DNA from: an uncultured Verrucomicrobiae bacterium
Lineage (GTDB): Bacteria; Verrucomicrobiota; Verrucomicrobiia; Limisphaerales; UBA11358
DNA: 64,000 nt
Assembly (NCBI GenBank): GCA_963842445.1
Contig: CAWJHF010000002.1
Span: 173,858 to 237,857 of the forward strand
Direction of reading: 5' to 3'
Shown one piece after another: positions 747-54,308 of the stretch (its first letter is position 1; each line of letters begins with the position of its first letter). The notes under the pieces are model-generated. The model was not told where the DNA came from. It worked only from the letters and a program-made list of their open reading frames with translations, and ran no database searches. The position numbers were made by a program, and so were the translations under genes.

Positions 747-896
747 ATGGATGCTCTGGTCGGCAGAATGAAGCGTGAGCGGCAGAAATCTCGATACGTT
801 CGGGTTTACCATGACCACATCGAGGACGAGTTCGACGACGATGGCAATGAATACCACGATGGCAGCTTCATGGAGAATGACGACGACGGAGCATGA
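747..896 (+). CDS. hypothetical small acidic protein (49 aa)
   Basis: ATG at 747 in the frame of track ORF 678..896, with an acidic tail DEFDDDGNEYHDGSFMENDDDGA. Support is weak. Confidence 0.2.
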   Translation: MDALVGRMKRERQKSRYVRVYHDHIEDEFDDDGNEYHDGSFMENDDDGA

Positions 897-960
897 AAAC
901 AAATCACGGATTGCGGGTCGTTTACGCCATGGCACGACTGGCGGGCGTGACTGTAAACTT

Positions 961-2769
961 ATGTTGTTAATGGTCATTGAAGGGGCGGGACGCCGCAAAC
1001 AGGATAGACCTGGATTAACCCAATACCGCCGTGTCCACAGAGTCCTGGCATCTGACGCGGCCCTGAGCAGAAAGTTTGGACCCCTTGTCCTGGTTGAGCG
1101 CGACGGCGTGTCGGCCCAGTTCCCGAAGGCTGTTGTCGAACTGACCGAAGCCATTCATGCCGAAGGACTGAACATTTACAAACTAAACAAGCGGGACATA
1201 ATGAGGCGGGCCGCGCAAATGCTGATCCTCTCACCGGCAGCGCCTATTTCCAAAGAATCCGAGAGCGCAACAAACCAAAGCCAGAAACCCAAGGCCGCTG
1301 CGCCAAATGTGAGAGAAAGCAAAACGGTGAGTTCAGCACCCGCAGCCCCCAAAATCAGCAACTTTGCTGGATCGGCAGGCAAGCTAAAAACAGGCAGTAC
1401 TGCCGCCCCGCAGACGGACCGTAGCGGGGATGTCAAATTTGTCGAAAATTCCACCGGCGCGGCTGGTTCGACAACTTCGACAACTTCGACAGGGGGTCAC
1501 ACCCTGGAAATGGCCATCATTCCTGCCGACTCGCTGCTGGAAGATTACCGTCATTTTGCCCGTGACCAGTTGGAGAGCGCCGACAGTTACATCATCGGCT
1601 CGTTTCTGCCGGTCGTGGCGGCGTGCCTTGGCCGCCGGGTTCACTTCCCGTGGGCCAGCGAGCGGATATACCCGAACCTCTTTTCCATTCTGGCTGGCAA
1701 GTCCGGCGACCGAAAGTCCACGGCTATAAACCTAGCCGAGGCCGTTGCAACAGCACTGCTCAAACCTGAAAATTTTCTCCCGCACGATTGCAGCGTGGAG
1801 TCGCTGTTCGATGAATACGACCCCGGCTTCGGAGGCTCACCCGACAAACTCTTGATGGTGGACGATGCCAACAGCCTCCTCGGCACGTGGACCAAAAGCG
1901 GGTATGGCGAGCGCGTGTCACGACGGTTTCTGGACCTCTACGACTGCCAGCATCTCTCGGAGTCATTCCAGAAAAACAAGAAGGCCAGCGCGGATGGAAC
2001 CGGACGCCGGTTCATTCCTGAAACATCGACGAGCGTCGTTTTGGGGGCCACTTTCGACATCTGCCGGTTGCGGGGGCGGCAAATCAGTTCCGGCCTGCAA
2101 CGCCGCTTCCTGTTCTACGCCGCCGAGCGCCACGGGCGGTTCATTGCCAGTCCGCCGCCGGGCGACATGGCGCAGTTTAATGGCCTCGTGAAGGCGCTGA
2201 ACAGGCTCGCTGAACTGAAGGCCGAGTGCGCGTTCTCGGATCAGGCGGGCGTTCTGTGGGAGGCGTATCAACGGCAAAACCGGGAGCTGCTGAAAATCGA
2301 AGCAGACGAGGGCCGCCTGTCACGAATCAACGGCGCTCCCCGCCATGTGCAAAAAATCGCCATGCTCTTTGAGGCGGCCATCTGGGCGAGGCAGGACCGC
2401 CCGGCTTGGGACGGGGTCGTCCAGGCCACCACATTGCAGTTGGCCATCAACCATGTGACCCACTGCCTTGAAACCGCTGCGCGGCTGGACGCTTTGGCTG
2501 ACAAGGCGGAAATCACCACGGCGGCTGACGTGTTGTTGGCGAAAATCAGGCGTGATTTCAGGCTGCCGCAGCACCTTCGAGACGGGCGGATTTGGCTCAC
2601 CAAAACCGATTTGACCGCAAAGTATGCGCCGCATCCTGATCGTCCCCATTCCTGGAAACCAGATGACCTTTACTTGCGCCTAATACCCAATCTCATTGAG
2701 CACGGTCTGGCCCGCTTGGGCGAGCAGCAGGGCAAAAAAGTCTGGTACGGATTCGCGGTTGAGGACTGA
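961..2769 (+). CDS. P-loop NTPase, DUF3987-like (primase-associated helicase family of mobile elements)
   Basis: Degenerate Walker A LAGKSGDRKST and Walker B KLLMVDDANSL. The overall layout matches my recollection of DUF3987/YfjI-type proteins. The start is uncertain: the track ORF starts with GTG at 775, and I chose the ATG at 961 because the upstream part is low-complexity and overlaps 747..896. Confidence 0.5.
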   Translation: MLLMVIEGAGRRKQDRPGLTQYRRVHRVLASDAALSRKFGPLVLVERDGVSAQFPKAVVELTEAIHAEGLNIYKLNKRDIMRRAAQMLILSPAAPISKESESATNQSQKPKAAAPNVRESKTVSSAPAAPKISNFAGSAGKLKTGSTAAPQTDRSGDVKFVENSTGAAGSTTSTTSTGGHTLEMAIIPADSLLEDYRHFARDQLESADSYIIGSFLPVVAACLGRRVHFPWASERIYPNLFSILAGKSGDRKSTAINLAEAVATALLKPENFLPHDCSVESLFDEYDPGFGGSPDKLLMVDDANSLLGTWTKSGYGERVSRRFLDLYDCQHLSESFQKNKKASADGTGRRFIPETSTSVVLGATFDICRLRGRQISSGLQRRFLFYAAERHGRFIASPPPGDMAQFNGLVKALNRLAELKAECAFSDQAGVLWEAYQRQNRELLKIEADEGRLSRINGAPRHVQKIAMLFEAAIWARQDRPAWDGVVQATTLQLAINHVTHCLETAARLDALADKAEITTAADVLLAKIRRDFRLPQHLRDGRIWLTKTDLTAKYAPHPDRPHSWKPDDLYLRLIPNLIEHGLARLGEQQGKKVWYGFAVED

Positions 2770-4077: not shown

Positions 4078-5526
4078 ATGAAAAACTGGTTTGAAGTGGA
4101 CAAACAGGGACTGGCGAAAATCCTCGAACGGAAGGGCAAGGAATTCGTCGTGTTCGAGCTGATTCAGAATTCATGGGACGAGCCGGGCGTTACCCAAGTC
4201 GGTGTGTCGCTGGAATACGAAGGGCGGAACAAAGCCCGGCTCGTGGTCGAGGACGACGCCCCGGAAGGATTCAAAGACCTGGCCCATGCGTTCACGCTGT
4301 TTGCGGACTCGGCCAAGAAAGCCAATCCCGAACAGCGCGGGCGGTTCAACCTTGGCGAGAAGCTGGTGCTGGCTATCAGCGACGAAGTCACCATCCGCAC
4401 GACCAAAGGAACCATCCGCTTCGATGCCGAGGGCAGGCATCATCTGCGATCAAAGCAGGCGGTCGGCAGCCGGGTCGAATGTCTCCTGCGCCTGAAGGCG
4501 GACGAGTGCGCCGCCATCGAAGCGCAAGTCCGCAGGCTGATCCCGCCGCCACACATCACAACCATCTTCAACGGTGCCGCACTGCAATCGCAGCGGGTTG
4601 CCGACGAATTCAGGGCAACGCTGCCAACCGAGATCGCCGGTGCAGACGGGTTTCTGGCGCGGGCCGACCGCGAAACGACCGTCCGGCTCTTTGCCGTCGC
4701 GCCGGGCCAAACCGCCATGCTTTACGAACTGGGCATTCCGGTGGTGGAGACCGGCGACAAATGGCACTACGACATCGGGCAGAAAGTCCCACTGACACTC
4801 GACCGTGAGAACGTGCAGCCCAGTTTTCTTCGGCAGGTGCGTGTCGCCGTCTTCAACCGGATGCACGCCCAACTGTCGGCAGAGGATGTGAACAGTGGAT
4901 GGGTGGAAACGGCCATTGCTTCACCGGACTGCGCACTTGAAGCAGCGCAAAACTACGTCCGCCAACGTTTCGGAGAAAAACGGGTGAGCTTCGACCCATC
5001 CGACCCGGAGGCCAACAAACTTGCCGTCAGTCAGGGTTACACGGTCGTACATGGTTCGATGATGTCATCGGGCGCATGGAAAAACGCCAAAGCCGCCAGC
5101 GCCATCCAGCCTGCGGGTCAGGTCACACCCGGCCCGAAAGTCTGGACAGGCGAAGATGATCCCGATGCCGCGCTGTTCCATGACTGGATTCCCGAAGCAA
5201 AGTGGACGAACGGGATGCGCGAGATTGCGGATTTCGCCAAGTGCGTTGCCCAGAAAGTGCTGACGCGCCCGATCACGGTGAAGTTCTGCGCGACGCCGCA
5301 TCATCTGGGCGGCGCATCCTACGGCCCAAGCGGGGAACTGGTCTTCAACAAATTCCGGTTGGGCGCTGACTGGTTTGAGCGCGGGATCAACGAAGACGTG
5401 GTGCGGCTGCTCATCCACGAGTTCGGGCACCAGTGCAGCGCCGATCACCTGAGTTCTGAGTACCACGAAGCCCTGTGCCGGATCGGAGCAAAACTGTTCG
5501 CCTTGGCCCGGCGCGGTGAAGTGTGA
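4078..5526 (+). CDS. GHKL-type ATPase domain fused to a C-terminal HExxH (zincin-like) region
   Basis: N-box-like ELIQNSWDE, G1-like VEDDAPEGF and G2-like RGRFNLGEK in the first ~120 aa. C-terminal LLIHEFGHQ provides the HExxH motif. The ATG at 4078 is preceded by gaaagg; the track ORF starts at 4045. Confidence 0.6.
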   Translation: MKNWFEVDKQGLAKILERKGKEFVVFELIQNSWDEPGVTQVGVSLEYEGRNKARLVVEDDAPEGFKDLAHAFTLFADSAKKANPEQRGRFNLGEKLVLAISDEVTIRTTKGTIRFDAEGRHHLRSKQAVGSRVECLLRLKADECAAIEAQVRRLIPPPHITTIFNGAALQSQRVADEFRATLPTEIAGADGFLARADRETTVRLFAVAPGQTAMLYELGIPVVETGDKWHYDIGQKVPLTLDRENVQPSFLRQVRVAVFNRMHAQLSAEDVNSGWVETAIASPDCALEAAQNYVRQRFGEKRVSFDPSDPEANKLAVSQGYTVVHGSMMSSGAWKNAKAASAIQPAGQVTPGPKVWTGEDDPDAALFHDWIPEAKWTNGMREIADFAKCVAQKVLTRPITVKFCATPHHLGGASYGPSGELVFNKFRLGADWFERGINEDVVRLLIHEFGHQCSADHLSSEYHEALCRIGAKLFALARRGEV

Positions 5527-5538
5527 TAAACGAGACAG

Positions 5539-6084
5539 GTGACTGTTTCAAAGTCCAATCCAGTAGTGGAAAGAGACCTGATTTTTTACCAGTTCAGCCG
5601 CTTCAAAGTGGAACGCAGCGACTTCAGCCATTTCTTGGGCCTGTATGCGCCGGACATACTACCCACCGGCAGGCGGCAGCGGGAAATGATGGACAGCCTG
5701 ATGTTCGGCATCGAAGGTTGGGACAACGATCCTCGTGAAATCCACACGATCCCCGAAATCCTGCGGTTCTATTCAGCGTTCCATGACGCTTGGCCATACT
5801 GGCTCTACTTCTGCAACCTTGATGTGGATACGCTCAGGGCGATGACGATGTGCTGCCTGCCCTCAACCAACACGATGCAGGTGGACGGGCGAATACCGGT
5901 GGCAGTCACCTGCGATCCGCCCGACCTGTTGAATTTTCTCAAACGTGATTTCATGCCGATGGACCTGATGTGTGAACGGGCCGGGATTTTTGAAGAACGG
6001 ATTTACGACCGGACGAAGGCGGTGTTTGATTACTTCAACCTGCCCTTTCAGGCTGAACCGCTACCGGAGAAACGCCTTGCATGA
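5539..6084 (+). CDS. conserved hypothetical protein, paralogue A (about 60% identical by eye to 39574..40080)
   Basis: GTG start 12 nt after the upstream stop. Shared blocks with the paralogue include IFYQFSR.KVER.DFS.FLGLYAPD.LPTG, HTIPEI, AWPYWLY.CNLD and MCCLPS. Confidence 0.6.
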   Translation: MTVSKSNPVVERDLIFYQFSRFKVERSDFSHFLGLYAPDILPTGRRQREMMDSLMFGIEGWDNDPREIHTIPEILRFYSAFHDAWPYWLYFCNLDVDTLRAMTMCCLPSTNTMQVDGRIPVAVTCDPPDLLNFLKRDFMPMDLMCERAGIFEERIYDRTKAVFDYFNLPFQAEPLPEKRLA

Positions 6085-6446
6085 ATCGCCGCACGCTCAA
6101 GAGGCTTCGCACCAAGCGGCAGCCGCAACCGCATCACCATGTCTATGTCGTGCTGCTCGATCCGGCAGTTCGCAGAATGCGGAAGGTCCGTGCGGAAAAT
6201 CCCAAGCGCAATCCCAGGAAGCCCTGCGTGTATGTCGGCATGACCGGACTGACGCCGGAGGAACGTTTTGCAAATCACAAAAGCGGAATCAAAGCTGCTT
6301 CTCTGGTCAAACGCTACGGCATCCGCCTGCTGCCGGAACTCTACGCGCACCTGAACCCCATGCCGTTCGAGGCGGCGGTGCAGATGGAGAAGGATTTGGC
6401 GGAGGATTTGCGCCGGGCCGGGTTCACGGTCATGGGTGGGCATTAG
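6081..6446 (+). CDS. GIY-YIG-superfamily-like small protein
   Basis: ATGA start/stop overlap with 5539..6084. Sequence HVYVVLL...CVYVGMTGLTPEERFANHKSG resembles GIY...YIG...R...H, but with an unusually long spacer. Confidence 0.4.
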   Translation: MNRRTLKRLRTKRQPQPHHHVYVVLLDPAVRRMRKVRAENPKRNPRKPCVYVGMTGLTPEERFANHKSGIKAASLVKRYGIRLLPELYAHLNPMPFEAAVQMEKDLAEDLRRAGFTVMGGH

Positions 6447-8643
6447 CCGTTGCCAGCAACCGCGCCAGCAGCCCTGAAAACCGGTTTTCCGTCCGGTTGT
6501 TCTTCACCGCCATCGCCAGCGCCTTGCGCTGGCCGATGAGCACCACCAGTTTCTTTCCCCGCGTGATACCGGTGTAAACGAGATTGCGCTGCAACAGCAG
6601 GTACTGCTGCATCGCCAGGGGGATGACGACCGCCGGAAATTCCGATCCCTGCGATTTGTGGATGGTGATGGCGTAAGCCAGTGAAATCTCGTCCAGCTCG
6701 CCGTAGTCGTAAACGACCTCGCGCTGGTCGAAGCGGATGGTGACCTCCCGCTCGACGGAATCAATCTTGACGATCTGGCCGATGTCGCCGTTGAACACGT
6801 CCTTGTCGTAGTCGTTTTCAGTTTGGATCACCTTGTCCCGTGGCCGGAACTGCCAGCCGAACTTTTCCACGGACGGCTCGTCGGCGCGGGCCGGGTTGAG
6901 TTCCTGCTGGAGCCGCACGTTGAGTTCACGGATGCCCAGTGAACCTTTGTTCATCGGGCAGAGCACCTGTATGTCGCCGATGGGATCGAGCCGGAATCTG
7001 GCCGGGATGCGGGTCTTGACCATTTCCACGAGCGTCGAGGCGATCTGATCCGGCTCATTGCGCTCTATGAAGAAGAAATCCGACTCTCTACCTTTGGCTG
7101 GAACCTCTGGCATCTGACCTTCGTTGATCCGGTGCGCGTTGGTGATGATCCGGCTGTGCGCCGCCTGCCGGAAGACTTCAGTTAGGCGCACCACCGGCAC
7201 GACTTTGCTTTCGATCACATGCCGCAGCACCATGCCCGGCCCCACGGACGGCAACTGGTCGATGTCGCCCACCAAGAGCAGGCTGGCCTTCGATGGCAGG
7301 GCGCGGAGCAGGTGTGCCATGAGCACCACGTCCACCATCGAGGTTTCGTCCACGACCAGAAGGTCGCAGTCCAATGGCTTGGCTTCGTTCCGCGTGAAAC
7401 TGCCAGTGGCAGGCTGGACTTCGAGCAGGCGGTGGATGGTCTTGGCCTCGACGCCGGTCGCCTCGGACAGGCGCTTGGCGGCCCTGCCGGTGGGCGCACA
7501 CAGGAGGCAGCGCACTTTCTTGGCCCGGAGGATCAGCAGAATTGCGTTGACCAGGGTCGTCTTGCCCACACCGGGGCCGCCGGTGATGACCAGCGCCCGG
7601 CTCGTCAGGGCCAGCTTGAGCGCCTCGCGCTGGCTGGCCGCAAGCTCCTTGCCGGTCTTTTCCTGACACCAGACGACCGCCTTGTCGAAATCAATGGCCG
7701 GGAAGGCGGACGGCGAGCCGCAGAGGCTCCTGATCCGGCCCGCGATGATTTCCTCGGCCCGTTTCAGGTGCGGCAGGAAGATCAGTTCCTGCCCGTTGAT
7801 CGTTTCCTTGACCAGATCGTTGCTGGCCAGGGTGCGCTCCAGCGCCCCGGTCACGATCTTGTCGTCCACAAGCAGGAGCTTGCCCGCCTCGTCCTTGAGC
7901 AGTTCCACCGGCAGGGCACAGTGTCCGTCGCCGGTCGCCTCGATCAGGACATGGCTCAGCCCGGCGCAGGCCCGGAGCAGGGAATCCACCGGGATGCCGA
8001 TCTTCTGCGCAATCTGGTCGGCGGTTTTGAAACCGATGCCGTGAATGTCCTTGGCCAGCCGGTAGGGGTCGCTGCGCACCTTCTCGATGGCGTCCTCGCC
8101 GTAGGTCTTGTAGATGCGCACGGCCCGGCTGGTGCTCACGCCGTGGCTATGCAGGAACACCATGATCTGGCGGATGACCTTCTGCTCCGCCCAGGCGTCC
8201 TTGATCCTGTGCCTGCGCTTCGGCCCGATCCCGTCCACTTCCTCCAGCCGCGCCGAATGATTCTCGATGATGTCGAAGATGCTCTCACCAAACTTCGCCA
8301 CCAGCTTCTTGGCATACACCGGCCCGATGCCCTTGACCATGCCGCTGCCCAGATATTTTTCGATGCCTTCCCTGGTCGTCGGCGCGGTGCTGCTCAGCAT
8401 CTCGGCCCGGAACTGAAGGCCAAACTCCCGATCCTGCACCCATCGGCCTTCCGCCGTCATCCATTCACCGGCGCTGACCGAGGGCAGGGAGCCGACGACC
8501 GTAACCTGATCCCGGTGGCTCTTGGCTTTGACCTTGAGCACCGCGAAGCCGTTTTCCTCATTGAAGAAAGTGACGCGCTCGATCAGCCCGGAAAGACTTT
8601 CGGCGAACTGCTTGGACGGAGGATGTGCTTTCACCGGCATCAT
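6430..8643 (-). CDS. recD2: RecD2-type SF1B ATP-dependent DNA helicase
   Basis: Motifs ITGGPGVGKTT, LLVVDETSMVD, LLLVGDIDQLPSVGPG, AITIHKSQGSEFP and VYTGITRGKKLVVLIG. ATG at 8643; the track start at 8670 is TTG. Confidence 0.9.
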   Translation of the reverse strand: MMPVKAHPPSKQFAESLSGLIERVTFFNEENGFAVLKVKAKSHRDQVTVVGSLPSVSAGEWMTAEGRWVQDREFGLQFRAEMLSSTAPTTREGIEKYLGSGMVKGIGPVYAKKLVAKFGESIFDIIENHSARLEEVDGIGPKRRHRIKDAWAEQKVIRQIMVFLHSHGVSTSRAVRIYKTYGEDAIEKVRSDPYRLAKDIHGIGFKTADQIAQKIGIPVDSLLRACAGLSHVLIEATGDGHCALPVELLKDEAGKLLLVDDKIVTGALERTLASNDLVKETINGQELIFLPHLKRAEEIIAGRIRSLCGSPSAFPAIDFDKAVVWCQEKTGKELAASQREALKLALTSRALVITGGPGVGKTTLVNAILLILRAKKVRCLLCAPTGRAAKRLSEATGVEAKTIHRLLEVQPATGSFTRNEAKPLDCDLLVVDETSMVDVVLMAHLLRALPSKASLLLVGDIDQLPSVGPGMVLRHVIESKVVPVVRLTEVFRQAAHSRIITNAHRINEGQMPEVPAKGRESDFFFIERNEPDQIASTLVEMVKTRIPARFRLDPIGDIQVLCPMNKGSLGIRELNVRLQQELNPARADEPSVEKFGWQFRPRDKVIQTENDYDKDVFNGDIGQIVKIDSVEREVTIRFDQREVVYDYGELDEISLAYAITIHKSQGSEFPAVVIPLAMQQYLLLQRNLVYTGITRGKKLVVLIGQRKALAMAVKNNRTENRFSGLLARLLATANAHP

Positions 8644-8830
8644 GGTGCGGGCCAACCGTAGAACAGGCAAGCGTCGGGCGGGTCCGACAGAAAACGGACG
8701 CAGACGGGATGAGACTGATGGCGCTGGCCGACGCCGATTTGGAACCGATGCGGAAAGAAATCGCGCAGATGAGAGCGCGAAAGAAGAAAAGGCGCGTCGC
8801 GTGACGTTGCTGCTGCAATAGAGATAAATT

Positions 8831-33075: not shown

Positions 33076-33200
33076 AACGTTTGCTCACAGGGAAGGCGTG
33101 CCTGAACCACGCCCAACGTTTCAAAGCCGAGCCACGGTCACTGGCGGCTGGCTCACGCCTGCAATAATGACTCTCAAATTTCATATCTCAAACCAAAATC

Positions 33201-33792: not shown

Positions 33793-36384
33793 TCAGCGCG
33801 TCTTCAAAACGCGGTCGGCTGGCTTTGAAATAAGTATCCCGGTCAGCGAAGCGGGGTCCAGTTGCGCCGATTGCAACCTGTCGGCTGCGTTTGCTCGCCA
33901 CGCCAAGTCACCTGAGCCAGGAAAAGTCCTGCGAAGGTCACGAATAACTTGGAGTGCGGATTTCGCCCATGAACGGAATTCGGCCAAGTTCCACACACAC
34001 ACGTCTTTCAGATGCGGCATCGCCTCCTTATCAGCGACGGCTACCGGCGTGACAAGGACCGGGATTATGTTGGCAGCCTTTGCCAGCGGTACTCTCTCCC
34101 GTATCCAATTTGGGTGGGAAGCCGCTTGCCTCGCCTTCGTTACGTCGAGGCTGCCAGCACGGTCCCCGTTCGAGTGGTCCTCAAAGACCAGGCAAAGCTC
34201 GTCATGCAAAATCCACCATGGATCGGGCGATCCTTTTGATTCTTCCTTCCCGGCCTTGAAGCCGAGCATCGTTCCCAGTCGCTCATGGGCGGTTTCAAAC
34301 TTGGAGCTTTCGTTCTGCATGATGTTTTCTGCAATGAACTTTTCCTCCTGGTCGAATTTCCGGTCATGGGCGGTACCCAGATTTTCAAGATTGCTCTCAA
34401 TGTTCTCAACCTGGAGCGCGAGGGCCTCGTCACGGGTCGGCGTGGATTTGGCCTTTTCTTGTAGTCGGCAAAGGCCGACCAACCACGAGACCCCTGGCGC
34501 TGCTTTTTGAGCGGCTGCGTATTGAGCGCGTGCCTGTTGGTCGAGTCCTTCGACACCGCTCTTGTACGCCAGCCAGGCGGCGCTGCCAGCCAAGTAACTC
34601 CACAACGCCCGATAACCACGGAGTGCCGGGTCATTAAGCCGCCCAAGAACTGCCCTGGCCGCATCGAATGCCCCAGGGTAATCCCCCTGCCACAGGCTCG
34701 TTTGATACTCAATTTCGGAGTCCACAGCCTGATGGAGATCGGCTGTGCCCGGCAGGGCTTTTCGTGTGAGGCCCTCACGGAGTTGAACGATCTGACTGTC
34801 CGCCTGCTGCCAATCTTGGGATTGCTGAAGGAAAGCCGCCAAGTTGTCCACGAAATCAGACACCTTCTGGTCTTTGGATTGATCGATGCCGAACTGGAGT
34901 TCGGCTTGCAGTTCAGGATGGAGAAAGCACCGACGATCAGTGGCAAGCAGGTAATTGTGAAGTTCCTCCCCTTCAACAATCACAGCGGCAAAATCTGTCG
35001 CCGAACGGGTGCAACGACCGAACGCTTGGACCATTCTCGTCAGGATGCGGTCGTTCAACATTGCAACGGCCCCCAATCGAGTGATGAAGAATCTTTCCTG
35101 GAGATTCGTGGCGCGTGGCAGTCCCGCCACGATGAGAACACGGCATTCGTCGTCAGGAAAATCGATCCCATCGTAACGGTTGGCCAAGACAGCGACCGCC
35201 TTCGCTCTGGACGTAAATGGCGTTTTGGCAAGCTCAATGTCCCTGGCGTTGAAGGTGTCAAAACCCACCTTCTGCTTGACCCAATCCCGATACAGGGCGG
35301 CGCTTTCATCGTCTGGCACGATTACAAGGCTTCGTCCCGCCTTTTTGAGCACATGGACGGTCAACTCGTCGGCTTCCGTTTTGTTAAGTGATCTTTCGGG
35401 AAACAGGAAAAAGCGCCTGCCAATACCCTGCTTTTCCCACCCCTTGACCTGGAGGCGAAGAATACTCGACCGCCCGGTGATTCTCTCCAGATCGCCGCCT
35501 TCGCCGAGAGTAGCCGACATGTACACTCTTTGCCTTGCATCGGCGAAGGGCGCATGGCTGAAGGTTGGTGGGATAATGGGCCGCAGCAGAACTTCTCGCG
35601 CACTCAGGAACAGATGGCAAGCTGGCACGTGATCCCGGATCATCTTCCAAGGGAACGACAAATCCGAATCCGTTTCCTCAAGCCGGGTGTCCATGACTTT
35701 GATCAGTTCCGGGATGCGGTCGAAGAATTTAGGCGTCGGGATTTTTTCGACCCAGTTTTGGTCCCAAGTGCCGCCAGAACCTCCGCGCACGCGCTGCTGG
35801 TCCGCGCAGGACAGCAAATCCATAAAAACCCCAACGACGGCCTCATAGATCGCCGTATCCTCGGACCGAACTATCCGCAGCGACCACATCTTCGGAATGT
35901 AATTTTCCGCCGAATGGGAATCATCGAGAATGATTGTGTTCGGGTTCTGAAAATAAGGAGCAGTATTGAAAAGACTGCTGTAGGATGTAACCGCAATGGC
36001 CTCTCCGCCGATAAACTCACCCTTAGCGCCAGGATCGTAATCGGCTTTCTTTCCCACAAACCCGTTCACTTTCAAGCCGTACTGGGAAACCGCCTGGGTG
36101 ACGACTTGGTGGACGAGCTGATTAGTCGGGCACAGATAAACGACACGCTCCTGGAATTTCCTTCTCCGCCATTCGCCGATAAGCAAGCCGACGAGGGTCT
36201 TGCCACTGCCGGTGGCAAGCTGGAGTGCCACGTCGGGTACATCAACTGCTTTTGAAGTGTACTCGCGGAGAAGGTCAGCTTGCTGCGACAGCAAGCCTGG
36301 TATTTTTTTGGTGCGAATGTCTCTGAACAGGGCTTCGGGATTCTCCAGAGACAAGGCCGCAGTTGCAACGGGTTTGAAAGCCAT
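33793..36384 (-). CDS. SF2 helicase, DinG/XPD-like, with a ~350-aa C-terminal region of unknown function
   Basis: Motif I QLATGSGKTLVG, motif II IILDDSHS, VYMSATLG, ANRYDGIDFPDDECRVLIVAGLP and motif VI VQAFGRCTRS. ATG at 36384 (MAFKPV...). The track ORF extension to 36600 runs through the inverted repeat and looks non-coding. Confidence 0.8.
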   Translation of the reverse strand: MAFKPVATAALSLENPEALFRDIRTKKIPGLLSQQADLLREYTSKAVDVPDVALQLATGSGKTLVGLLIGEWRRRKFQERVVYLCPTNQLVHQVVTQAVSQYGLKVNGFVGKKADYDPGAKGEFIGGEAIAVTSYSSLFNTAPYFQNPNTIILDDSHSAENYIPKMWSLRIVRSEDTAIYEAVVGVFMDLLSCADQQRVRGGSGGTWDQNWVEKIPTPKFFDRIPELIKVMDTRLEETDSDLSFPWKMIRDHVPACHLFLSAREVLLRPIIPPTFSHAPFADARQRVYMSATLGEGGDLERITGRSSILRLQVKGWEKQGIGRRFFLFPERSLNKTEADELTVHVLKKAGRSLVIVPDDESAALYRDWVKQKVGFDTFNARDIELAKTPFTSRAKAVAVLANRYDGIDFPDDECRVLIVAGLPRATNLQERFFITRLGAVAMLNDRILTRMVQAFGRCTRSATDFAAVIVEGEELHNYLLATDRRCFLHPELQAELQFGIDQSKDQKVSDFVDNLAAFLQQSQDWQQADSQIVQLREGLTRKALPGTADLHQAVDSEIEYQTSLWQGDYPGAFDAARAVLGRLNDPALRGYRALWSYLAGSAAWLAYKSGVEGLDQQARAQYAAAQKAAPGVSWLVGLCRLQEKAKSTPTRDEALALQVENIESNLENLGTAHDRKFDQEEKFIAENIMQNESSKFETAHERLGTMLGFKAGKEESKGSPDPWWILHDELCLVFEDHSNGDRAGSLDVTKARQAASHPNWIRERVPLAKAANIIPVLVTPVAVADKEAMPHLKDVCVWNLAEFRSWAKSALQVIRDLRRTFPGSGDLAWRANAADRLQSAQLDPASLTGILISKPADRVLKTR

Positions 36385-36485
36385 GCGGTCTTTTAGAACA
36401 TCGCCCCGTGGGTGTAAAGCCTTCGCCGCGCCGCTACCGGACGCCACCACGCCCCGCTCGGTGATCCCGGACAGGCAAGGGAGAG

Positions 36486-36554
36486 CGAACCGCCTGCGGC
36501 GTGGATTTGAACCTGAACTGGGACCGGCTGATGGCGGATGTGGGTTCCCACTGC
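36486..36554. repeat. Right copy of the 68-nt imperfect inverted repeat (partner at 339..406)
   Basis: See 339..406. Lies in the 260-nt divergent intergenic region between the helicase (start 36384) and the DUF5069 gene (start 36644). Confidence 0.9.
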
Positions 36555-36643
36555 CAACCGGCGGGCTGATTCCAAATTGTAACAGGGTTGACCTTGCCAA
36601 TCAGCGAAGCGATGGGCATGGTGTCATCAAAGAAAGAAACTTT

Positions 36644-37093
36644 ATGGCTATATTCGCACTCGACCTCACCAAACAGGCACCCCGCAGTCCACGGGTCCGC
36701 ATTGGCGGCTTCGTCATTCTTCCCCGCTGCCTCGACAAAGGCCGCGCAACCCTCATCCGCAAGAATGGCGAATACCGCTACGATTGTCCGTTGGATCAGC
36801 GGTTCCTGAACTTTGTTGGCATCAAGGCCGCCGCCCTGAAAAAGCAGCTCGCCACGGGCAAGGGTGACGGGGCGATTCTGGCCTGGATCACCGCCAACGC
36901 GAAGTTCAAGCGCAGCGAACTGGAAATCGCTCAATGGTCAGCCTACGTGGAGCAGCGCTTTCCGAAGGACCCGGAAACGCGGGAATACGTCAACGCAGCG
37001 CACAAGAAATACGGTCCTGAACGGGAGGACATCGGGACGTTCTTTGACCTGCTGGATTTGGACGACTACGTCAGCTTCGGGGGCAAGGCGTAA
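36644..37093 (+). CDS. DUF5069 domain protein
   Basis: DLTKQAPRSPRVRIGGFVILPRCLDKGRA matches my recollection of the DUF5069 N-terminal signature. ATG at 36644 within track ORF 36200..37093. Confidence 0.6.
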   Translation: MAIFALDLTKQAPRSPRVRIGGFVILPRCLDKGRATLIRKNGEYRYDCPLDQRFLNFVGIKAAALKKQLATGKGDGAILAWITANAKFKRSELEIAQWSAYVEQRFPKDPETREYVNAAHKKYGPEREDIGTFFDLLDLDDYVSFGGKA

Positions 37094-37508: not shown

Positions 37509-39479
37509 CTACTGGGTCTTTTCGCCGTTCTGGAACATCTCCAGCGCGATCAGGAACGGCTCGTGCAGGTCCATCCTCAGATCGTGCTCCGGCGCGATGC
37601 GCTTGAAACCCGCGAACATCAGGCACATCAGGTTCAGCCCGCTGAACTTTTCGCCGGGAAGGGATTTGAGCGTGTATTTCTGATCCGGCGAGGCATAGTC
37701 GAGGCCGTTGCGACCGACCAGCCCGATCTCCAGGGCGATCTCACGAATCTTTTCCACCGGCAGCTTGTCGTAGCGTTGCAGCGCATCCAGCAGGAAATAC
37801 ACGGCGGGCGTATGCTTCCGCTTCAGCAATTCAGGATTCGTCGAACCTTCCTTGCGGGGCGGCTCGGTCACGGTGTGTGTGCCTGGATCAATCTTCCATT
37901 CATACCAGCCCCGCAAGCCGACCATGTCGGCAAACTCGTCCACCAGGTCGTATTCATCGCCGGGACCAAGCTGCGGAAAGCGACTCCGCCAATGCTGGAA
38001 CAGGCGCTGTGAAAGCGGGAACGCATCCGACCGCTGATAGTGGGCGGCATAGTTGCAGGCTCCCCGATAAAGGTTGTCCAGGAACAGGCAGTACGCTCCG
38101 TTCAAGGCCAGACCCGCCCGCAGAATCAGCTTGGGGGTTACCTCCAGCACTTTGGGGTTCATATTCGATTCCAAGGCGTCCTGAACACCCATCCGCAATG
38201 CCACAAACTGCATTGCCGCCAGCACAGGCATCCGCTCCCGCAGCCGGGTTTCGATCAGCATGTCGAGCGGGCAGTTAAACAGGAAGCCTGCCAATCCCCG
38301 GATAAGTGCCGTTATCAATCCTTGGGAGGCATCAGCCGGAAATCCTTTGCGCTGCAAATTTCGGATGTCGTTTTCCAGACGCTGAAGGGCGCTCTGTTCT
38401 GTCTTGTCGGTCGTGACGAGGAACCGGTTCTTGCCCGCTTGCCGGGCCTCGGCCTCCAATTGCAGGTGGGTCAGCTCGTGCGCCGTCTGGTGTGTCCGCA
38501 AGTCTTCCGGCAAGCCAGTTCGGAACGTGATCAGGTGATGGTCCCGTCCATGCTTCCATGCCATCTGGATCGTGGCGCTCGTCTTGTCCTTGAACTCGCC
38601 CTCCGTCACCCGCACCGGATAACCGGTCAACCGCTCCAGTTCCGCCCGAAAGTTCTCGACGGCCTTGAACGCCTCCGACTGCTGCTGTTTCACCAGTTCG
38701 TCCTGAACTGCGCCGTAGAGCGTGCGGGCCTGATCGAAGACGTGTTTGGACCGGGCGTCCTGCATCCGGGCGTTGGCGAAAAGCCGGTCGAGTGAACGGG
38801 CGGCCAAAGGAAGCTGGCCGGTGCGCTGGAACGTGACGCCCAGTCCGTAGTAGGGGTTGGGCAGATCAGGGTTGGACGAGATCGCCTGCTCGAACAGTTT
38901 CACTGCCTCCTCGGTCTGGCCACGTTGGGCGGTCATGGCGGCGAGGCCGTTGAGCGCCCACGAATCGTCCGGTGCAATCTCCAGGGCGCGGCGCAGGAAT
39001 TTTTCGGCGGTTGCCCAGTCTTTTTCGCTTTTGGCGTAGAGATTGCCCAGGACAACCCAACCCCAGGGATCGCCCGGATTCAGCCGGAGAACCTCGATGA
39101 GATGATTCTTGGCACCCTCAATGTCACCTGTTTCCATGCAGGACATCGCCAGGTCACGGCGGGCCTTGTGAAAAGATGGGTTCAGTTCGAGCACCCGCTT
39201 CCAGAGCGAGATCGCCTTGTCGTAGCTGCCTTCGGCGGCTCGCTTGGCCGCCCGCTCGGCCAGGCGTTCAGCTTCGTGTTGAGCGCCCGGCGATTCCTCG
39301 GAAAACGAGATGGTCACGGTGTGTTCACCGAACTCGATCTGAAGCGACTGGCGCAGGAACTGAAACTGGCGGCGGACCATCGCTTCAACGATAGCGTTGT
39401 CGGGGCGCTGCGCCGGAACTGGCTGGCCCTCGAACTCGAACAGATCATTGATTTGAAGTGTGACTGACTTCACCTGCAT
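37509..39479 (-). CDS. TPR-repeat protein with a C-terminal HExxH-containing domain
   Basis: TPR-like repeats (AISLWKRVLELNP, AKNHLIEVLRLNP, AEKFLRRALEIAP, AVKLFEQAISSNP) followed by HQTAHELTHLQLE. ATG at 39479; the track start is 39521. Confidence 0.7.
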   Translation of the reverse strand: MQVKSVTLQINDLFEFEGQPVPAQRPDNAIVEAMVRRQFQFLRQSLQIEFGEHTVTISFSEESPGAQHEAERLAERAAKRAAEGSYDKAISLWKRVLELNPSFHKARRDLAMSCMETGDIEGAKNHLIEVLRLNPGDPWGWVVLGNLYAKSEKDWATAEKFLRRALEIAPDDSWALNGLAAMTAQRGQTEEAVKLFEQAISSNPDLPNPYYGLGVTFQRTGQLPLAARSLDRLFANARMQDARSKHVFDQARTLYGAVQDELVKQQQSEAFKAVENFRAELERLTGYPVRVTEGEFKDKTSATIQMAWKHGRDHHLITFRTGLPEDLRTHQTAHELTHLQLEAEARQAGKNRFLVTTDKTEQSALQRLENDIRNLQRKGFPADASQGLITALIRGLAGFLFNCPLDMLIETRLRERMPVLAAMQFVALRMGVQDALESNMNPKVLEVTPKLILRAGLALNGAYCLFLDNLYRGACNYAAHYQRSDAFPLSQRLFQHWRSRFPQLGPGDEYDLVDEFADMVGLRGWYEWKIDPGTHTVTEPPRKEGSTNPELLKRKHTPAVYFLLDALQRYDKLPVEKIREIALEIGLVGRNGLDYASPDQKYTLKSLPGEKFSGLNLMCLMFAGFKRIAPEHDLRMDLHEPFLIALEMFQNGEKTQ

Positions 39480-39573
39480 AGGATTATGCCCGATCACCGC
39501 ATCTGCGGCGAACCAAAACAACGGTTTGAACCGAGTCGCCGAAACGAAGCCTGCGCGTTACAATCAGGAAGGC

Positions 39574-40080
39574 ATGGCCAGCGACATCATCTTCTACCAG
39601 TTTTCCCGCCCGAAGGTGGAGCGGTGCGACTTCAGCGATTTCCTGGGCCTGTATGCGCCGGACCAACTGCCCACCGGCACTCGGCTGCGGGAAAAGATGG
39701 ACAGGATGATCTTTGTCATTGACGGCTACAACGATGATGACCGTGAAGTTCATACCATCCCGGAGATTCGCGGGTTCTACACGGCGTTCCACCTGGCATG
39801 GCCCTACTGGCTCTACTATTGCAATCTGGACACCGAAGCGCTGAAGATGATAGTGATGTGCTGCCTGCCTTCGATTGCGGCTATGAAGATGGATGGCAAG
39901 CCGAATGTTGCGGTGAAATACGACCCGCTCGAACTGCTTCGCTTCGTCAGCCAGGACTTTGGTCCGATGAACGTAATGTGTGAGCAGGCAGAAATGTCTG
40001 AACGGATGATCTACGACCGAAGCAAGGCCGTGTTCGAGTATTTCGGGATGCCGTTCAACGCCGAACCGCCGCTTGAATGA
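39574..40080 (+). CDS. conserved hypothetical protein, paralogue B of 5539..6084
   Basis: The ATG at 39574 is preceded by caggaagg. See paralogue A for the shared blocks. Confidence 0.6.
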   Translation: MASDIIFYQFSRPKVERCDFSDFLGLYAPDQLPTGTRLREKMDRMIFVIDGYNDDDREVHTIPEIRGFYTAFHLAWPYWLYYCNLDTEALKMIVMCCLPSIAAMKMDGKPNVAVKYDPLELLRFVSQDFGPMNVMCEQAEMSERMIYDRSKAVFEYFGMPFNAEPPLE

Positions 40081-40093
40081 TCATTTCCATGTT

Positions 40094-40618
40094 ATGACTG
40101 AGCAAGAATTTCACAAAATGTATCCGCTCATCATCGAGTGGATTCGCAACACGCTGGCGCAACATGCACCGGCTGCACGATCTGTGGCCTCACTGGGATT
40201 CAAACGCCTGCCGCATTACTACCATCAGGACACTCTGTCTGCTGCAAGGGTGGTTGTTGTGCCCAAGGTGCCGGTGCCGCCGCTGTCAGCAATGGGCCTG
40301 GAGCGATTTAGCAGCTTTGAGAAGATGGACGCTGGTGGCATCACCTACCTCGACACATATTTCGTGCGTGCCGACCAAAGCCACATCGAGTCGCTTCATT
40401 TTCACGAACTGGTTCACATCATCCAGTGGAGGCTGCTTGGTCCTGAAACGTTCCTGGCTCTTTATGCTGACGGTTTGGAACGCTTCGGCTACCGGAACAG
40501 TCCGCTGGAAAAGATGGCCTACGACTTGCAGGAGCGGTTTGGGCATGAAGCGCAGCCATTCAACGTAGAGACCGTTTGCGAGCCATTGATCCGGGAGATG
40601 AGGAACACACGCGGATGA
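40094..40618 (+). CDS. hypothetical HExxH-motif protein (putative zincin-like)
   Basis: SLHFHELVHIIQW. ATG at 40094 lies 13 nt after the paralogue B stop; an alternative TTG is at 40073. Confidence 0.45.
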   Translation: MTEQEFHKMYPLIIEWIRNTLAQHAPAARSVASLGFKRLPHYYHQDTLSAARVVVVPKVPVPPLSAMGLERFSSFEKMDAGGITYLDTYFVRADQSHIESLHFHELVHIIQWRLLGPETFLALYADGLERFGYRNSPLEKMAYDLQERFGHEAQPFNVETVCEPLIREMRNTRG

Positions 40619-40671: not shown

Positions 40672-41424
40672 CTAAACCGCCACAACGTCAGCGTCGTCGC
40701 CCAAAGCGACCAGCATCAACGGCGCTTTGCCGTCGAGTTGACCAGCCTCCACACGCTGTCGGAATGCCGCCAGCTTTTCAGGCGTGGCGGTGGAGATTAG
40801 TTGGGCGGCTTGCCGGTGGTATTCTCTCGGCAGGTGTTGTGCTACCGAAATGGCAACGAAGGCGTCACGGCGCATGGTCAATTCCTGAAGCATGGCGTCT
40901 TTTGCCGGGCATTCTGGTGCTTCCTCCGACAGGCGCTTCAAAATCCTTCCATAGAGATTGACGATTGCTTCAGGGAAAGGGTCTTGGTGGACGCACAGCT
41001 CGTGGATCATGGCCAATGTCTGGTCAAGGTCTTCTTCCCACGGCAGTTCCCGTTTAAGGACCGGAAGATTGCCCTGCGGCTGGACGCTGACCCCACCACC
41101 CGGCTGATCCCCACCTGAAATGTGGGATTTCATGACGGATGTGGCAGCCTCGCCATCGCCACACAAAGTGTGGTGCTCCACGGGAAACAGCAAACGATGC
41201 CGACGAGCACGGCCCTTGCCGGTTTGCTCGATGTATCCCCGGCGGCGCAGGCGGCGCAAAAGGTTTTCGACGCCACGGCACGTGCCACCAATCAGTTTGG
41301 CCAGCCGGGCATTGGAACAGCCGGGGAATTTTACGATGTGCGCCAGAACGACTTTTTCGCCGATGGCCAACGGCAGGGCACCGATGGCCGCCGGAATTTT
41401 GATTTCAATACTGGTCGAGTCCAT
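40672..41424 (-). CDS. winged-helix (MarR-like) DNA-binding protein
   Basis: N-terminal VLAHIVKFPGCSNARLAKLIGGTCRGVENLLRRLRRRGYIEQTGKG. ATG at 41424. Confidence 0.5.
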   Translation of the reverse strand: MDSTSIEIKIPAAIGALPLAIGEKVVLAHIVKFPGCSNARLAKLIGGTCRGVENLLRRLRRRGYIEQTGKGRARRHRLLFPVEHHTLCGDGEAATSVMKSHISGGDQPGGGVSVQPQGNLPVLKRELPWEEDLDQTLAMIHELCVHQDPFPEAIVNLYGRILKRLSEEAPECPAKDAMLQELTMRRDAFVAISVAQHLPREYHRQAAQLISTATPEKLAAFRQRVEAGQLDGKAPLMLVALGDDADVVAV

Positions 41425-41992
41425 TGTGTTTACCCAATAGAACTGAATTCCCAGGCTCAGGTTGGGGGGAATCGTTGCGGTGCTGATCACCGCCTTCTGC
41501 CCGCTCCCATCGGCGCTTCAGCCAATCCAAAAGTTCGCTCAAATCCGGGTACTGGCGGATTCGCGGTTCCAGAATAGCCAGCTCGGCCCTTGATCCGGCG
41601 ACCGCTGCCTCAATTATGGCCGTTTCCTGCTGCCGGTACGGCCGTAGCCTGGCGTAAATGACTTCTTCCGCCTGCCGGAGCCGGTTCAATTGGCGGGTCT
41701 GCCTGGCTTTTTTCAAATTGCGCCGGGCTGCTGCCAACTTGCGTCGTGACCGGATGCCACGAGTGGCCCTGCCGCCGAGCATGGCCAGGCCGGAGCGCCG
41801 GTTCCACGCCCGGACCGCATCCTGATATTCGGTGTGGATCGCCGGGATGCTGGCCCCGCATGAACGGCATCTGACGCCGTAGGTCAACGGATTAAGACCC
41901 ACCCAAAATACGTGAGCTGAAGTGCCACAAAATGGGCAGCACCGGATCGAATTGATGGAATTGCTCACAAAGTTTTTCGTGCTCAGATTCAT
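41405..41992 (-). CDS. Lar-family (restriction alleviation) zinc-ribbon domain protein with a basic/coiled C-terminal extension
   Basis: CPFCG...YGVRCRSCGASIP...EYQDAVRAWNRR matches the Lar-family pattern CPFCG-x(n)-C..CG-x(n)-A..AWN.R. Confidence 0.55.
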   Translation of the reverse strand: MNLSTKNFVSNSINSIRCCPFCGTSAHVFWVGLNPLTYGVRCRSCGASIPAIHTEYQDAVRAWNRRSGLAMLGGRATRGIRSRRKLAAARRNLKKARQTRQLNRLRQAEEVIYARLRPYRQQETAIIEAAVAGSRAELAILEPRIRQYPDLSELLDWLKRRWERAEGGDQHRNDSPQPEPGNSVLLGKHNGLDQY

Positions 41993-42185
41993 GTCTTACA
42001 TACCGTGCACAGCGCCGGCGTCGTGACCCAAGCCACGGCATCGAGGCCGGAATCTGTTTCGCCGGGGGAATTCGCCGGTTTCTCGTTGTGCAAGAACGGA
42101 CAAGGATGGGGCGCGGTGATTTTTGATAGTGGCAGCGCAAAACGTACTGCCGCCGCTTGTGAGGCAGATAATTGAGGATGTTGGA

Positions 42186-42509
42186 TCAACGCAAGGCCAG
42201 ATAATTCCTGCCAACCCGCCTGATGTACCGAAAGTAAACCAGTCGAGTTATCCGTGAGAGAATTTGTTTTTTTAACTCGCGGCTTGCGGAACGATTCGGC
42301 GGGTTGAGGGCGGCGGCGACACCATTGACCATCGCCCAGGTTGTAACGGCTTCGGGCTGATCCCGCAAGAAGTTTACAATTTCACGGTCCAACGGGAATG
42401 TTGGGTCAGGTAGGTTCAGTTTGGCCGCTGGAAGAACCGGCGGCGCCGAAGGTGGTCTATAACATACGTCGATAAAGTCCATGTCATATCTACCGACGCT
42501 GCCGGACAT
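42186..42509 (-). CDS. hypothetical protein (107 aa)
   Basis: ATG-initiated ORF. No motif recognised. Confidence 0.4.
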   Translation of the reverse strand: MSGSVGRYDMDFIDVCYRPPSAPPVLPAAKLNLPDPTFPLDREIVNFLRDQPEAVTTWAMVNGVAAALNPPNRSASRELKKQILSRITRLVYFRYIRRVGRNYLALR

Positions 42510-54119: not shown

Positions 54120-54308
54120 AAATGGGAAACGCTGTCGAATACCGGGCTGAACACTACGACGCGACAAGTAAGTTTTGGGTTGAGCCATGAGATTTGAACG
54201 TTCAGATTGCAGACGTGAGCCAGCCGCCAGTGGCCGGGGGTCAGCTTCGGTCCGGTCGTTGGGCATAATGTCGTGACAGGCGCAAACAACAACACATAGA
54301 GACTGAAT

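Follow-up and report, generated by a model that had tools for sequence, protein, structure and literature searches.

CRR6-like small proteins beside a TPR partner and interchangeable downstream genes in Verrucomicrobiota: possible adaptors of modular conflict cassettes

What role might a small protein play if it is encoded twice in one genomic region, each time next to a different protein with a metallopeptidase-like HExxH motif? This question is raised by a 64,000-nt stretch of DNA from an uncultured Verrucomicrobiae bacterium (contig CAWJHF010000002.1, positions 173,858 to 237,857), hereafter the window, whose internal numbering is used throughout. Small A (5539..6084, plus strand; 181 aa, GTG start) lies 12 nt 3' of the gene for a 482-aa GHKL-ATPase protein (4078..5526, plus strand) with the motif HEFGH. 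Its paralog, small B (39574..40080, plus strand; 168 aa), lies between the divergent gene for a 656-aa tetratricopeptide repeat (TPR) protein with the motif HELTH (37509..39479, minus strand) and, 13 nt 3' of small B, the gene for a 174-aa protein with the motif HELVH (40094..40618, plus strand). A first-pass annotation of the window had taken this arrangement to indicate a peptidase and its partner, be it an inhibitor, immunity protein, chaperone, or substrate, with the peptidase part swapped between architectures. We arrive at a different reading, held tentatively and with a confidence that stops a little short of an even balance, namely, that the CRR6-like small protein is non-enzymatic and serves a modular conflict cassette, probably an anti-phage one, as an adaptor or regulatory subunit. 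Physical binding, a division of roles among the members, and a function in defense are inferred parts of this reading.

Family, fold, and conserved residues of the small proteins

Small A and small B are identical at 102 of 162 residues (63%; BLASTP E value of 7e-79), and their genes share 73% identity over 300 nt. This bears out a paralogy that had been estimated by eye at about 60%, and the two sequence blocks quoted in its support, FYQFSR.KVER.DFS.FLGLYAPD and AWPYWLY.CNLD, are both present. Since A-type and B-type subfamilies both occur widely, the duplication is old, and the idea of a recent one is rejected. A word-indexed search recovered 482 clusters of close homologs, nearly all of ~167 aa and with 60 to 85% identity, and scanning one genome for each species yielded 80 loci, every one of them in Verrucomicrobiota metagenome-assembled genomes (MAGs), 2 of which carry evidently wrong names. 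Many of these MAGs hold two copies of the small gene.

Neither small A nor small B directly matched any model in Pfam (at an E value of ≤0.1), PADLOC, or PHROGs, and the sole NCBIfam match, that of small B to CRR6_slr1097, was nonsignificant (E value of 0.07). An exhaustive HMMER search with a family profile retrieved 1,850 clusters at 50% identity with E values of ≤1e-3, 610 of them at ≤1e-10. We worked with a narrow alignment (A1) of 30 sequences that are at least 61% identical and with a wide one (A2) reaching down to 25% identity, in which 15 of 67 members match the Pfam Crr6 model (PF08847; best E value of 6.3e-11). Distant homologs were found by tblastn in 28 plasmid records, in 3 of which the matched gene is annotated by NCBI as "chlororespiratory reduction 6 domain-containing" or "DUF1817," and hhalign of A1 against three NCBI-annotated CRR6/DUF1817 proteins returned a probability of 99.2% (E value of 2.5e-19 over 155 columns). 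The Pfam matches within A2, the annotated plasmid genes, and this last result, which supplies the profile-profile search proposed in the first-pass annotation, identify the small proteins, at the level of sequence comparison, as a divergent Crr6/DUF1817 domain. The family is not phage-borne and is essentially absent from phage collections: no GenBank phage record carries it, and searches with A1 and a further alignment, A3, found it in 2 of the 2.9 million contigs of IMG/VR.

With A2 as input, AlphaFold predicted an α/β fold with a predicted local distance difference test score (pLDDT) of 96.7 and a predicted TM score (pTM) of 0.90; a model based on the shallow A1 reached a pLDDT of 52 and was discarded. 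Foldseek found no match to the A2 model in the PDB (best E value of 1.1, TM scores below 0.26) and a single borderline match in BFVD, to an uncharacterized Marseillevirus protein (E value of 1.2e-3, TM scores of 0.40/0.47). Sequence and profile searches of the PDB with A1, A2, A3, A5, and the C-terminal half of the TPR protein yielded nothing usable, and a match to 2x8x at an E value of 0.0037 was deemed too weak. Throughout the wide family, the conserved positions are R12, D19, G51, E58, E64, R66, W76, P77, E120, and R149; His, Cys, and Ser are not among them, which suggests that the small protein is most likely non-enzymatic. Four cysteines of small B (C83, C96, C97, and C136; window about 39820 to 39981) reach 90% conservation or more within the verrucomicrobial subfamily and may form a metal or redox site, but they are not conserved across the wide Crr6-like family. 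About a tenth of the close homologs (P0051, P0083, P0096, P0113, and others) end in a zinc-binding SEC-C tail. SEC-C domains also turn up in the surroundings: a gene combining DUF1186 and SEC-C recurs 3' of genes for homologs of the HELVH protein (e.g., L122, 4874-5788), and a YchJ (SEC-C) gene lies close to the CRR6-like gene of plasmid pALVIN01.

The TPR partner, the downstream genes, and their genomic setting

The steadiest neighbor of the small gene is the TPR protein family. The member in the window has TPR Pfam matches and weak TPR-type matches alone in PADLOC, and it consists of an N-terminal domain, TPR repeats (about residues 75 to 240), a "mid" domain, and a "Cterm" domain. Its gene is separated from small B by 94 nt (39480..39573), presumed to be a promoter region common to both genes; a consensus promoter scan gave no match in these 94 nt, and around copy B, scanning for promoters and terminators proved uninformative. 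Of 82 loci, 33 have a member of the family next to the small gene. Restricting the count to the 65 loci whose upstream flank is 1.5 kb or longer gives 29 with such a gene, which is the immediately adjacent open reading frame (ORF) in 27. The partner takes the form either of one fused protein, encoded divergently or by the immediately preceding gene of the same operon, the latter coupling being seen in Opitutales loci, or of a split pair comprising a "mid" gene and a "TPR-Cterm" gene, and the link is present for both A-type and B-type small genes. Further, two proteins of our representative library, P0157 and P0168, unite TPR and CRR6-like parts in a single chain, and P0157 aligns to residues 12 to 184 of the window TPR protein, i.e., to its N-terminal and TPR part (E value of 3e-8).

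The genes directly 3' of the small gene vary and include those for amidohydrolase, SIR2, Smr-like, PPK2, and other proteins. In locus A, the stop codon of the small gene overlaps by 4 nt (ATGA) the start of a translationally coupled gene for a 121-aa GIY-YIG-like protein (6081..6446, plus strand; weak Pfam GIY-YIG match, E value of 0.005). Loci with an HELVH gene have the order small gene, HELVH gene, and then an amidohydrolase, SIR2, or GIY-YIG gene; they usually end in a 121-aa GIY-YIG gene, and the HELVH gene and the next one overlap by 4 nt. Homologs of the GIY-YIG gene follow the small gene in 6 genome loci and the HELVH gene in ~15 metagenome loci. Both loci of the window fit as reduced cassettes of this kind, with locus B comprising the divergent TPR gene, the small gene, and the HELVH gene and locus A comprising the small and GIY-YIG genes. 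When compared with type II toxin-antitoxin systems, both loci have the coupling (the 4-nt overlap in A and the 13-nt gap in B), but the downstream gene varies widely among close homologs; the small proteins show no DNA-binding domain in the Pfam scan or the AlphaFold model. The idea of integron cassettes was dropped because the genes overlap or sit 2 to 40 nt apart, leaving no space for attC sites.

We propose that the CRR6-like protein is the constant small subunit of a cassette found in the defense islands and mobile elements of Verrucomicrobiota. In this cassette, the TPR neighbor would act as a sensor or scaffold and the CRR6-like protein as a protein-binding adaptor or chaperone-like regulator, and the gene or genes directly downstream would supply interchangeable effectors, i.e., the HExxH protein in copy B, the GIY-YIG protein in copy A, and SIR2, amidohydrolase, or Smr proteins elsewhere. 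As the downstream effector genes interchange, the HExxH neighbor would be one effector option and not the defining partner. The proposal offers concrete cassettes of two to four genes that can now be tested for phage defense or toxicity.

The genomic setting is consistent with conflict. Small-gene loci homologous to those of the window abut genes of type I and type III restriction-modification (RM) systems, BrxL of the BREX system, and UvrD-like helicases, and HELVH genes abut Mrr and PLD-helicase genes. Within the window, a large DEAD/DinG-type helicase (33793..36600, minus strand; true start probably near 36380) matches the PADLOC candidate system PDC-S28 with an E value of 1e-116, and a DUF5069 protein (36641-37093, plus strand) is encoded between it and the TPR gene. 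Convergent with the small A/GIY-YIG pair is a RecD-like helicase gene (6430-8670, minus strand). One homolog of this helicase (55% identity) is encoded divergently beside the CRR6-domain gene of the Allochromatium plasmid pALVIN01 (L168, 4789-6873), and another (82% identity) is separated from an HELVH gene by one gene for a 277-aa protein (L088, 972-3161).

The same surroundings carry genes of the mobile-element kind. Downstream of the HELVH gene lies a three-gene block on the minus strand (40672-42509), composed of a Rep-like winged helix-turn-helix (wHTH) gene (40672..41490), a gene for a Lar-type restriction-alleviation zinc-ribbon protein (41405..41992; PF14354, E value of 1.7e-7), and a 107-aa ORF (42186..42509); it is kept beside small or HELVH genes in four other loci (L001, L004, L006, and L088). 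Upstream of locus A is a gene for a DUF3987 protein (775-2769, plus strand), a type that is common on mobile-element replication modules. A 67-nt inverted repeat, the two copies of which (336-402 and 36491-36557) are 93% complementary and 36 kb apart, contains GGTTCAAATCC and lies ~55 to 110 nt 5' of two gene starts, namely, an ATG at 458 (plus strand) and that of the PDC-S28-like helicase (minus strand). Scanning the window for tRNAs and against Rfam returned nothing, so that no tRNA, tmRNA, or Rfam match falls on the repeat, which is thus not a detected tRNA/tmRNA att site; it also gave no fold signal (z score of 0.62), and none of the 176 other loci retrieved contains it. Another inverted repeat pair (33124-33198 and 54173-54247) is 75 nt long and 80% complementary. 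The GC profile of the window delineates no distinct island.

Several observations weigh against our proposal. No model in PADLOC-DB v2 matches the small, HELVH, or GIY-YIG proteins; the small gene has no obligatory partner, with the TPR family present in ~45% of the loci; and many small genes precede ordinary-looking genes, such as those for PPK2, glycosidase-like, and BNR proteins. Cassettes lacking the small gene also exist: in one form, a conserved 178-aa protein (L081/L084, 3409-3960), which has a PD-(D/E)xK-like motif read by eye and no Pfam match, replaces the small protein 5' of HELVH-amidohydrolase operons. Since cassette genes occur without it, the adjacency of the small gene could reflect island synteny and not a complex. 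The characterized family members CRR6 and Slr1097, moreover, act in NDH-1 assembly. Finally, with Lar, Rep-like wHTH, DUF3987, and orphan methyltransferase plus ParB_N genes lying near and with the distant plasmid homologs sitting within arrays of small genes, a role in establishment or anti-defense fits about equally.

That last point leads to the main rival explanation, in which integrative or conjugative elements carry the small gene as part of their conserved backbone or for their establishment, possibly with an anti-defense function; it would mark the edge of a cargo hotspot, and its neighbors would be functionally unlinked cargo. We regard this as possible but unlikely. It would account for the mostly colinear order of these loci, from the small gene through HELVH and amidohydrolase or SIR2 to GIY-YIG with a variable interior, as well as for the Lar, Rep-like, and DUF3987 genes close by and for the orphan D12 methyltransferase and ParB_N genes beside the TPR gene in L086. 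It is also consistent with the two copies in many MAGs and with the distant relatives on proteobacterial plasmids, where some of the 28 records place the homolog next to an integrase gene or within a long run of small genes that share one strand and are accompanied by an LPD1 protein. However, the fusions of CRR6-like domains to TPR and, as described below, to GAP1 favor a role inside multiprotein systems, as do the operonic coupling to the TPR gene in Opitutales and the 4-nt overlap of small A with the GIY-YIG gene. Moreover, no integrase or conjugation genes lie consistently beside the verrucomicrobial loci, and the family's near absence from phage collections points the same way.

Conservation of the HExxH motifs and their link to the small gene

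The three HExxH motifs are located as first read, HEFGH at residues 447 to 451 of the GHKL protein (window 5416-5430), HELVH at residues 104 to 108 of the 174-aa protein (window 40403-40417), and HELTH at residues 334 to 338 of the TPR protein (window 38466-38480, minus strand), and the gene starts assumed at 4078, 40094, and 39479 are consistent with the N termini of homologs. The longest ORF of the HELVH gene begins at 40073 and gives the 181-aa numbering used below. From the composition of related ORFs, the motif is expected by chance in 0.8% (181 aa), 2.2% (493 aa), and 2.9% (670 aa) of such proteins, which puts the earlier estimate of 1 to 2% in the right range. Counted directly in related loci, the motif is commoner, being present in 4.1% of ORFs and 3.1% of protein clusters. 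Three motifs beside two paralogs do exceed the expectation from composition, as had been argued, but conservation within the respective family holds for only two of them.

The HELVH protein has 1,411 homologs and no match in Pfam, NCBIfam, PADLOC, PHROGs, or the PDB sequences. Across 22 members with 64 to 90% identity, H109, H111-E112-L-V-H115, W119, R120, E136, and E146 are invariant (181-aa numbering), and the two glutamates, 21 and 31 residues past the motif, are candidates for the third metal ligand. Judged by this pattern of residues, the HExxH(+E) signature of the family is genuine, making the protein a candidate minimal zincin-like effector. The GHKL protein, which combines a HATPase_c_3 match with a sacsin-like N terminus, belongs to a family of ~482-aa proteins with more than 3,500 homologs and no Pfam family of its own. 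In 21 sequences with 54 to 89% identity, the GHKL motifs and a C-terminal HExxHxxxxxH (H447, E448, H451, and H457) are invariant; the best peptidase-profile match of the C terminus is to Reprolysin_3 (E value of 0.14), and PADLOC returned a weak match to TmtA (E value of 4e-5). The third motif, HELTH, has no such standing. In a comparison of the TPR-protein "mid" domain with 18 relatives, HEL[TSI]H was confined to the closest fused clade, the site reading HELCR in a second fused clade (L026, L029, L030, and L045) and, where the "mid" gene is split off, Q..x.LR, and one of 13 "mid" domains matched eCIS_core nonsignificantly (E value of 0.033).

The association of these proteins with the small gene depends on where one starts. 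In the genome loci, a homolog of the HELVH protein follows the small gene in just 1 of 80 cases and a GHKL homolog is near in 1, and HExxH occurs in 5 of 108 neighbor clusters against 18 of 580 in the background; the family-wide enrichment that the first-pass annotation had named as a check was not found. Starting from the HELVH gene, we obtained 80 metagenome loci, 58 of them with enough flank, which dereplicate to 48 groups. The small gene lies directly 5' on the same strand with a gap of 2 to 40 nt in 23 of the 58 loci and in 15 of the 48 groups, and the small proteins in these pairs span 57 to 82% identity. The two counts, 1 in 80 from one side and 15 in 48 from the other, indicate that the pair is real but facultative and that HExxH is no family-wide rule. 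Four further homologs of the GHKL-HExxH gene have no neighbor of the small-protein family, and the one beside copy A is probably an independent member of the island. Elsewhere, the neighbors of GHKL homologs (L171 to L174) include CBASS genes (CD-NTase and Cap15), Mrr_cat, and an AcrVA2-like gene. The sight of HExxH beside both paralogs is thus an attractive and partly real signal, two of the motifs being conserved, but it is not the organizing rule of these loci.

In this light, we consider it improbable that the small protein is a dedicated partner of zincin-type metallopeptidases. The recurrent small-HELVH pair, the invariant motifs of the HELVH and GHKL families, and a YgjP-like metallopeptidase gene two genes upstream in two loci (L069 and L080) speak for such a role, and the notion of a swappable neighbor came near to what we observe. 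However, the lack of enrichment, the unconserved HELTH, and the GHKL homologs without the small gene in all four other contexts count against it, as does the occupation of the same position by SIR2, amidohydrolase, Smr, or GIY-YIG proteins; moreover, specific inhibition of enzymes this dissimilar would hardly be expected of so conserved a protein.

Very improbable in our estimation is that the small protein is an immunity protein of polymorphic toxins of the Rhs type, kept in the form of multicopy orphan immunity genes. A small ORF with an RHS repeat does follow the small gene in L059 and L073, several copies occur per genome, some members have SEC-C tails, and a short, conserved protein with no apparent enzymatic activity would suit such a role. 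However, the loci examined have no upstream toxin domain or Rhs core, the recurrent neighbors are TPR, RM, and BREX genes, and very high sequence conservation is unusual in immunity proteins. A housekeeping assembly factor like CRR6/Slr1097, acting on a ferredoxin-type subunit of respiratory complex I, is hardly credible, for although the Crr6 homology, the weak CRR6_slr1097 match, and the four subfamily cysteines recall such a factor, the context is highly variable, diverged copies occur severalfold per genome, relatives are plasmid-borne, the neighbor clusters scanned contain no NDH or other respiratory-complex gene, and the wide family does not retain the cysteines.

Relation to known systems

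Of the families that bear comparison, the minimal zincins and proteins with metzincin-like motifs (HExxH+E; HExxHxxGxxH; the DUF4157/eCIS_core and reprolysin-like groups) resemble the two proteins with conserved motifs in the invariant HExxH plus two glutamates of the 174-aa protein and the HExxHxxxxxH of the GHKL protein, but neither protein significantly matches a curated peptidase profile.

The small proteins themselves share with Crr6/DUF1817 (PF08847; NF038024, "CRR6 family NdhI maturation factor") a homologous, apparently non-catalytic single domain of ~150 to 170 aa. To our knowledge, its sole characterized members are the NDH-1 assembly factors CRR6 of Arabidopsis and Slr1097 of Synechocystis, for which the NCBIfam name gives a function in the assembly or maturation of NDH-1 (NdhI). 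In contrast to these, small A and small B do not themselves reach the Pfam model; their hosts are Verrucomicrobiota and not cyanobacteria or plastids; their genes adjoin TPR, RM, BREX, and effector-like genes and not NDH genes; and their subfamily is multicopy per genome, far more conserved, and equipped with four extra conserved cysteines.

A second parallel is with the GAP1-N1 DO-GTPase systems. In a complete operon of GAAD-Metallophos, GASH, DO-GTPase, and GAP1 genes (L180), a relative of the small proteins forms the C-terminal domain of GAP1 (P0234), a position that holds effector or effector-recruiting domains (Kaur et al. 2020, eLife, PMC7159879). The window, in contrast, has no GTPase, GASH, or GAP1 genes, and the link consists of a single fusion.

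A precedent in defense is Divona, a protein from a cassette of a Vibrio chromosomal integron that combines DUF4365, an Mrr-like nuclease domain, and Crr6 (PF08847) and for which phage resistance has been shown experimentally; its authors described the Crr6 domain as new to defense (bioRxiv 10.1101/2024.07.02.601686). As in Divona, where Crr6 is joined to a nuclease, copy A of the window couples a CRR6-like gene to a GIY-YIG nuclease-like gene. However, Divona is one polypeptide, whereas the small proteins stand alone at 168 and 181 aa without a nuclease domain, and in the window's family a TPR protein is the usual partner and the effectors differ, so that the likeness is one of domain content only.

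Set beside these systems, what was already known of Crr6/DUF1817 is its part in NDH-1 assembly in plants and cyanobacteria and its recent appearance in one validated anti-phage protein. To this, the present analysis adds a large and very conserved verrucomicrobial branch with a confidently predicted fold that has no solved relative, a recurrent TPR partner that includes single-chain fusions, and a series of interchangeable downstream enzyme genes. It also raises the question of whether CRR6-type domains serve generally as adaptors in bacterial immunity. One answer, which we offer as a doubtful extension of the cassette proposal, is that CRR6-fold proteins constitute a widespread, unrecognized class of adaptors or sensors of bacterial immune and conflict systems, of which photosynthetic CRR6 would be a domesticated offshoot. 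Such a class would span the stand-alone form with TPR proteins in Verrucomicrobiota, the nuclease fusion of Divona, the GAP1 fusion of the DO-GTPase systems, and the relatives on proteobacterial plasmids.

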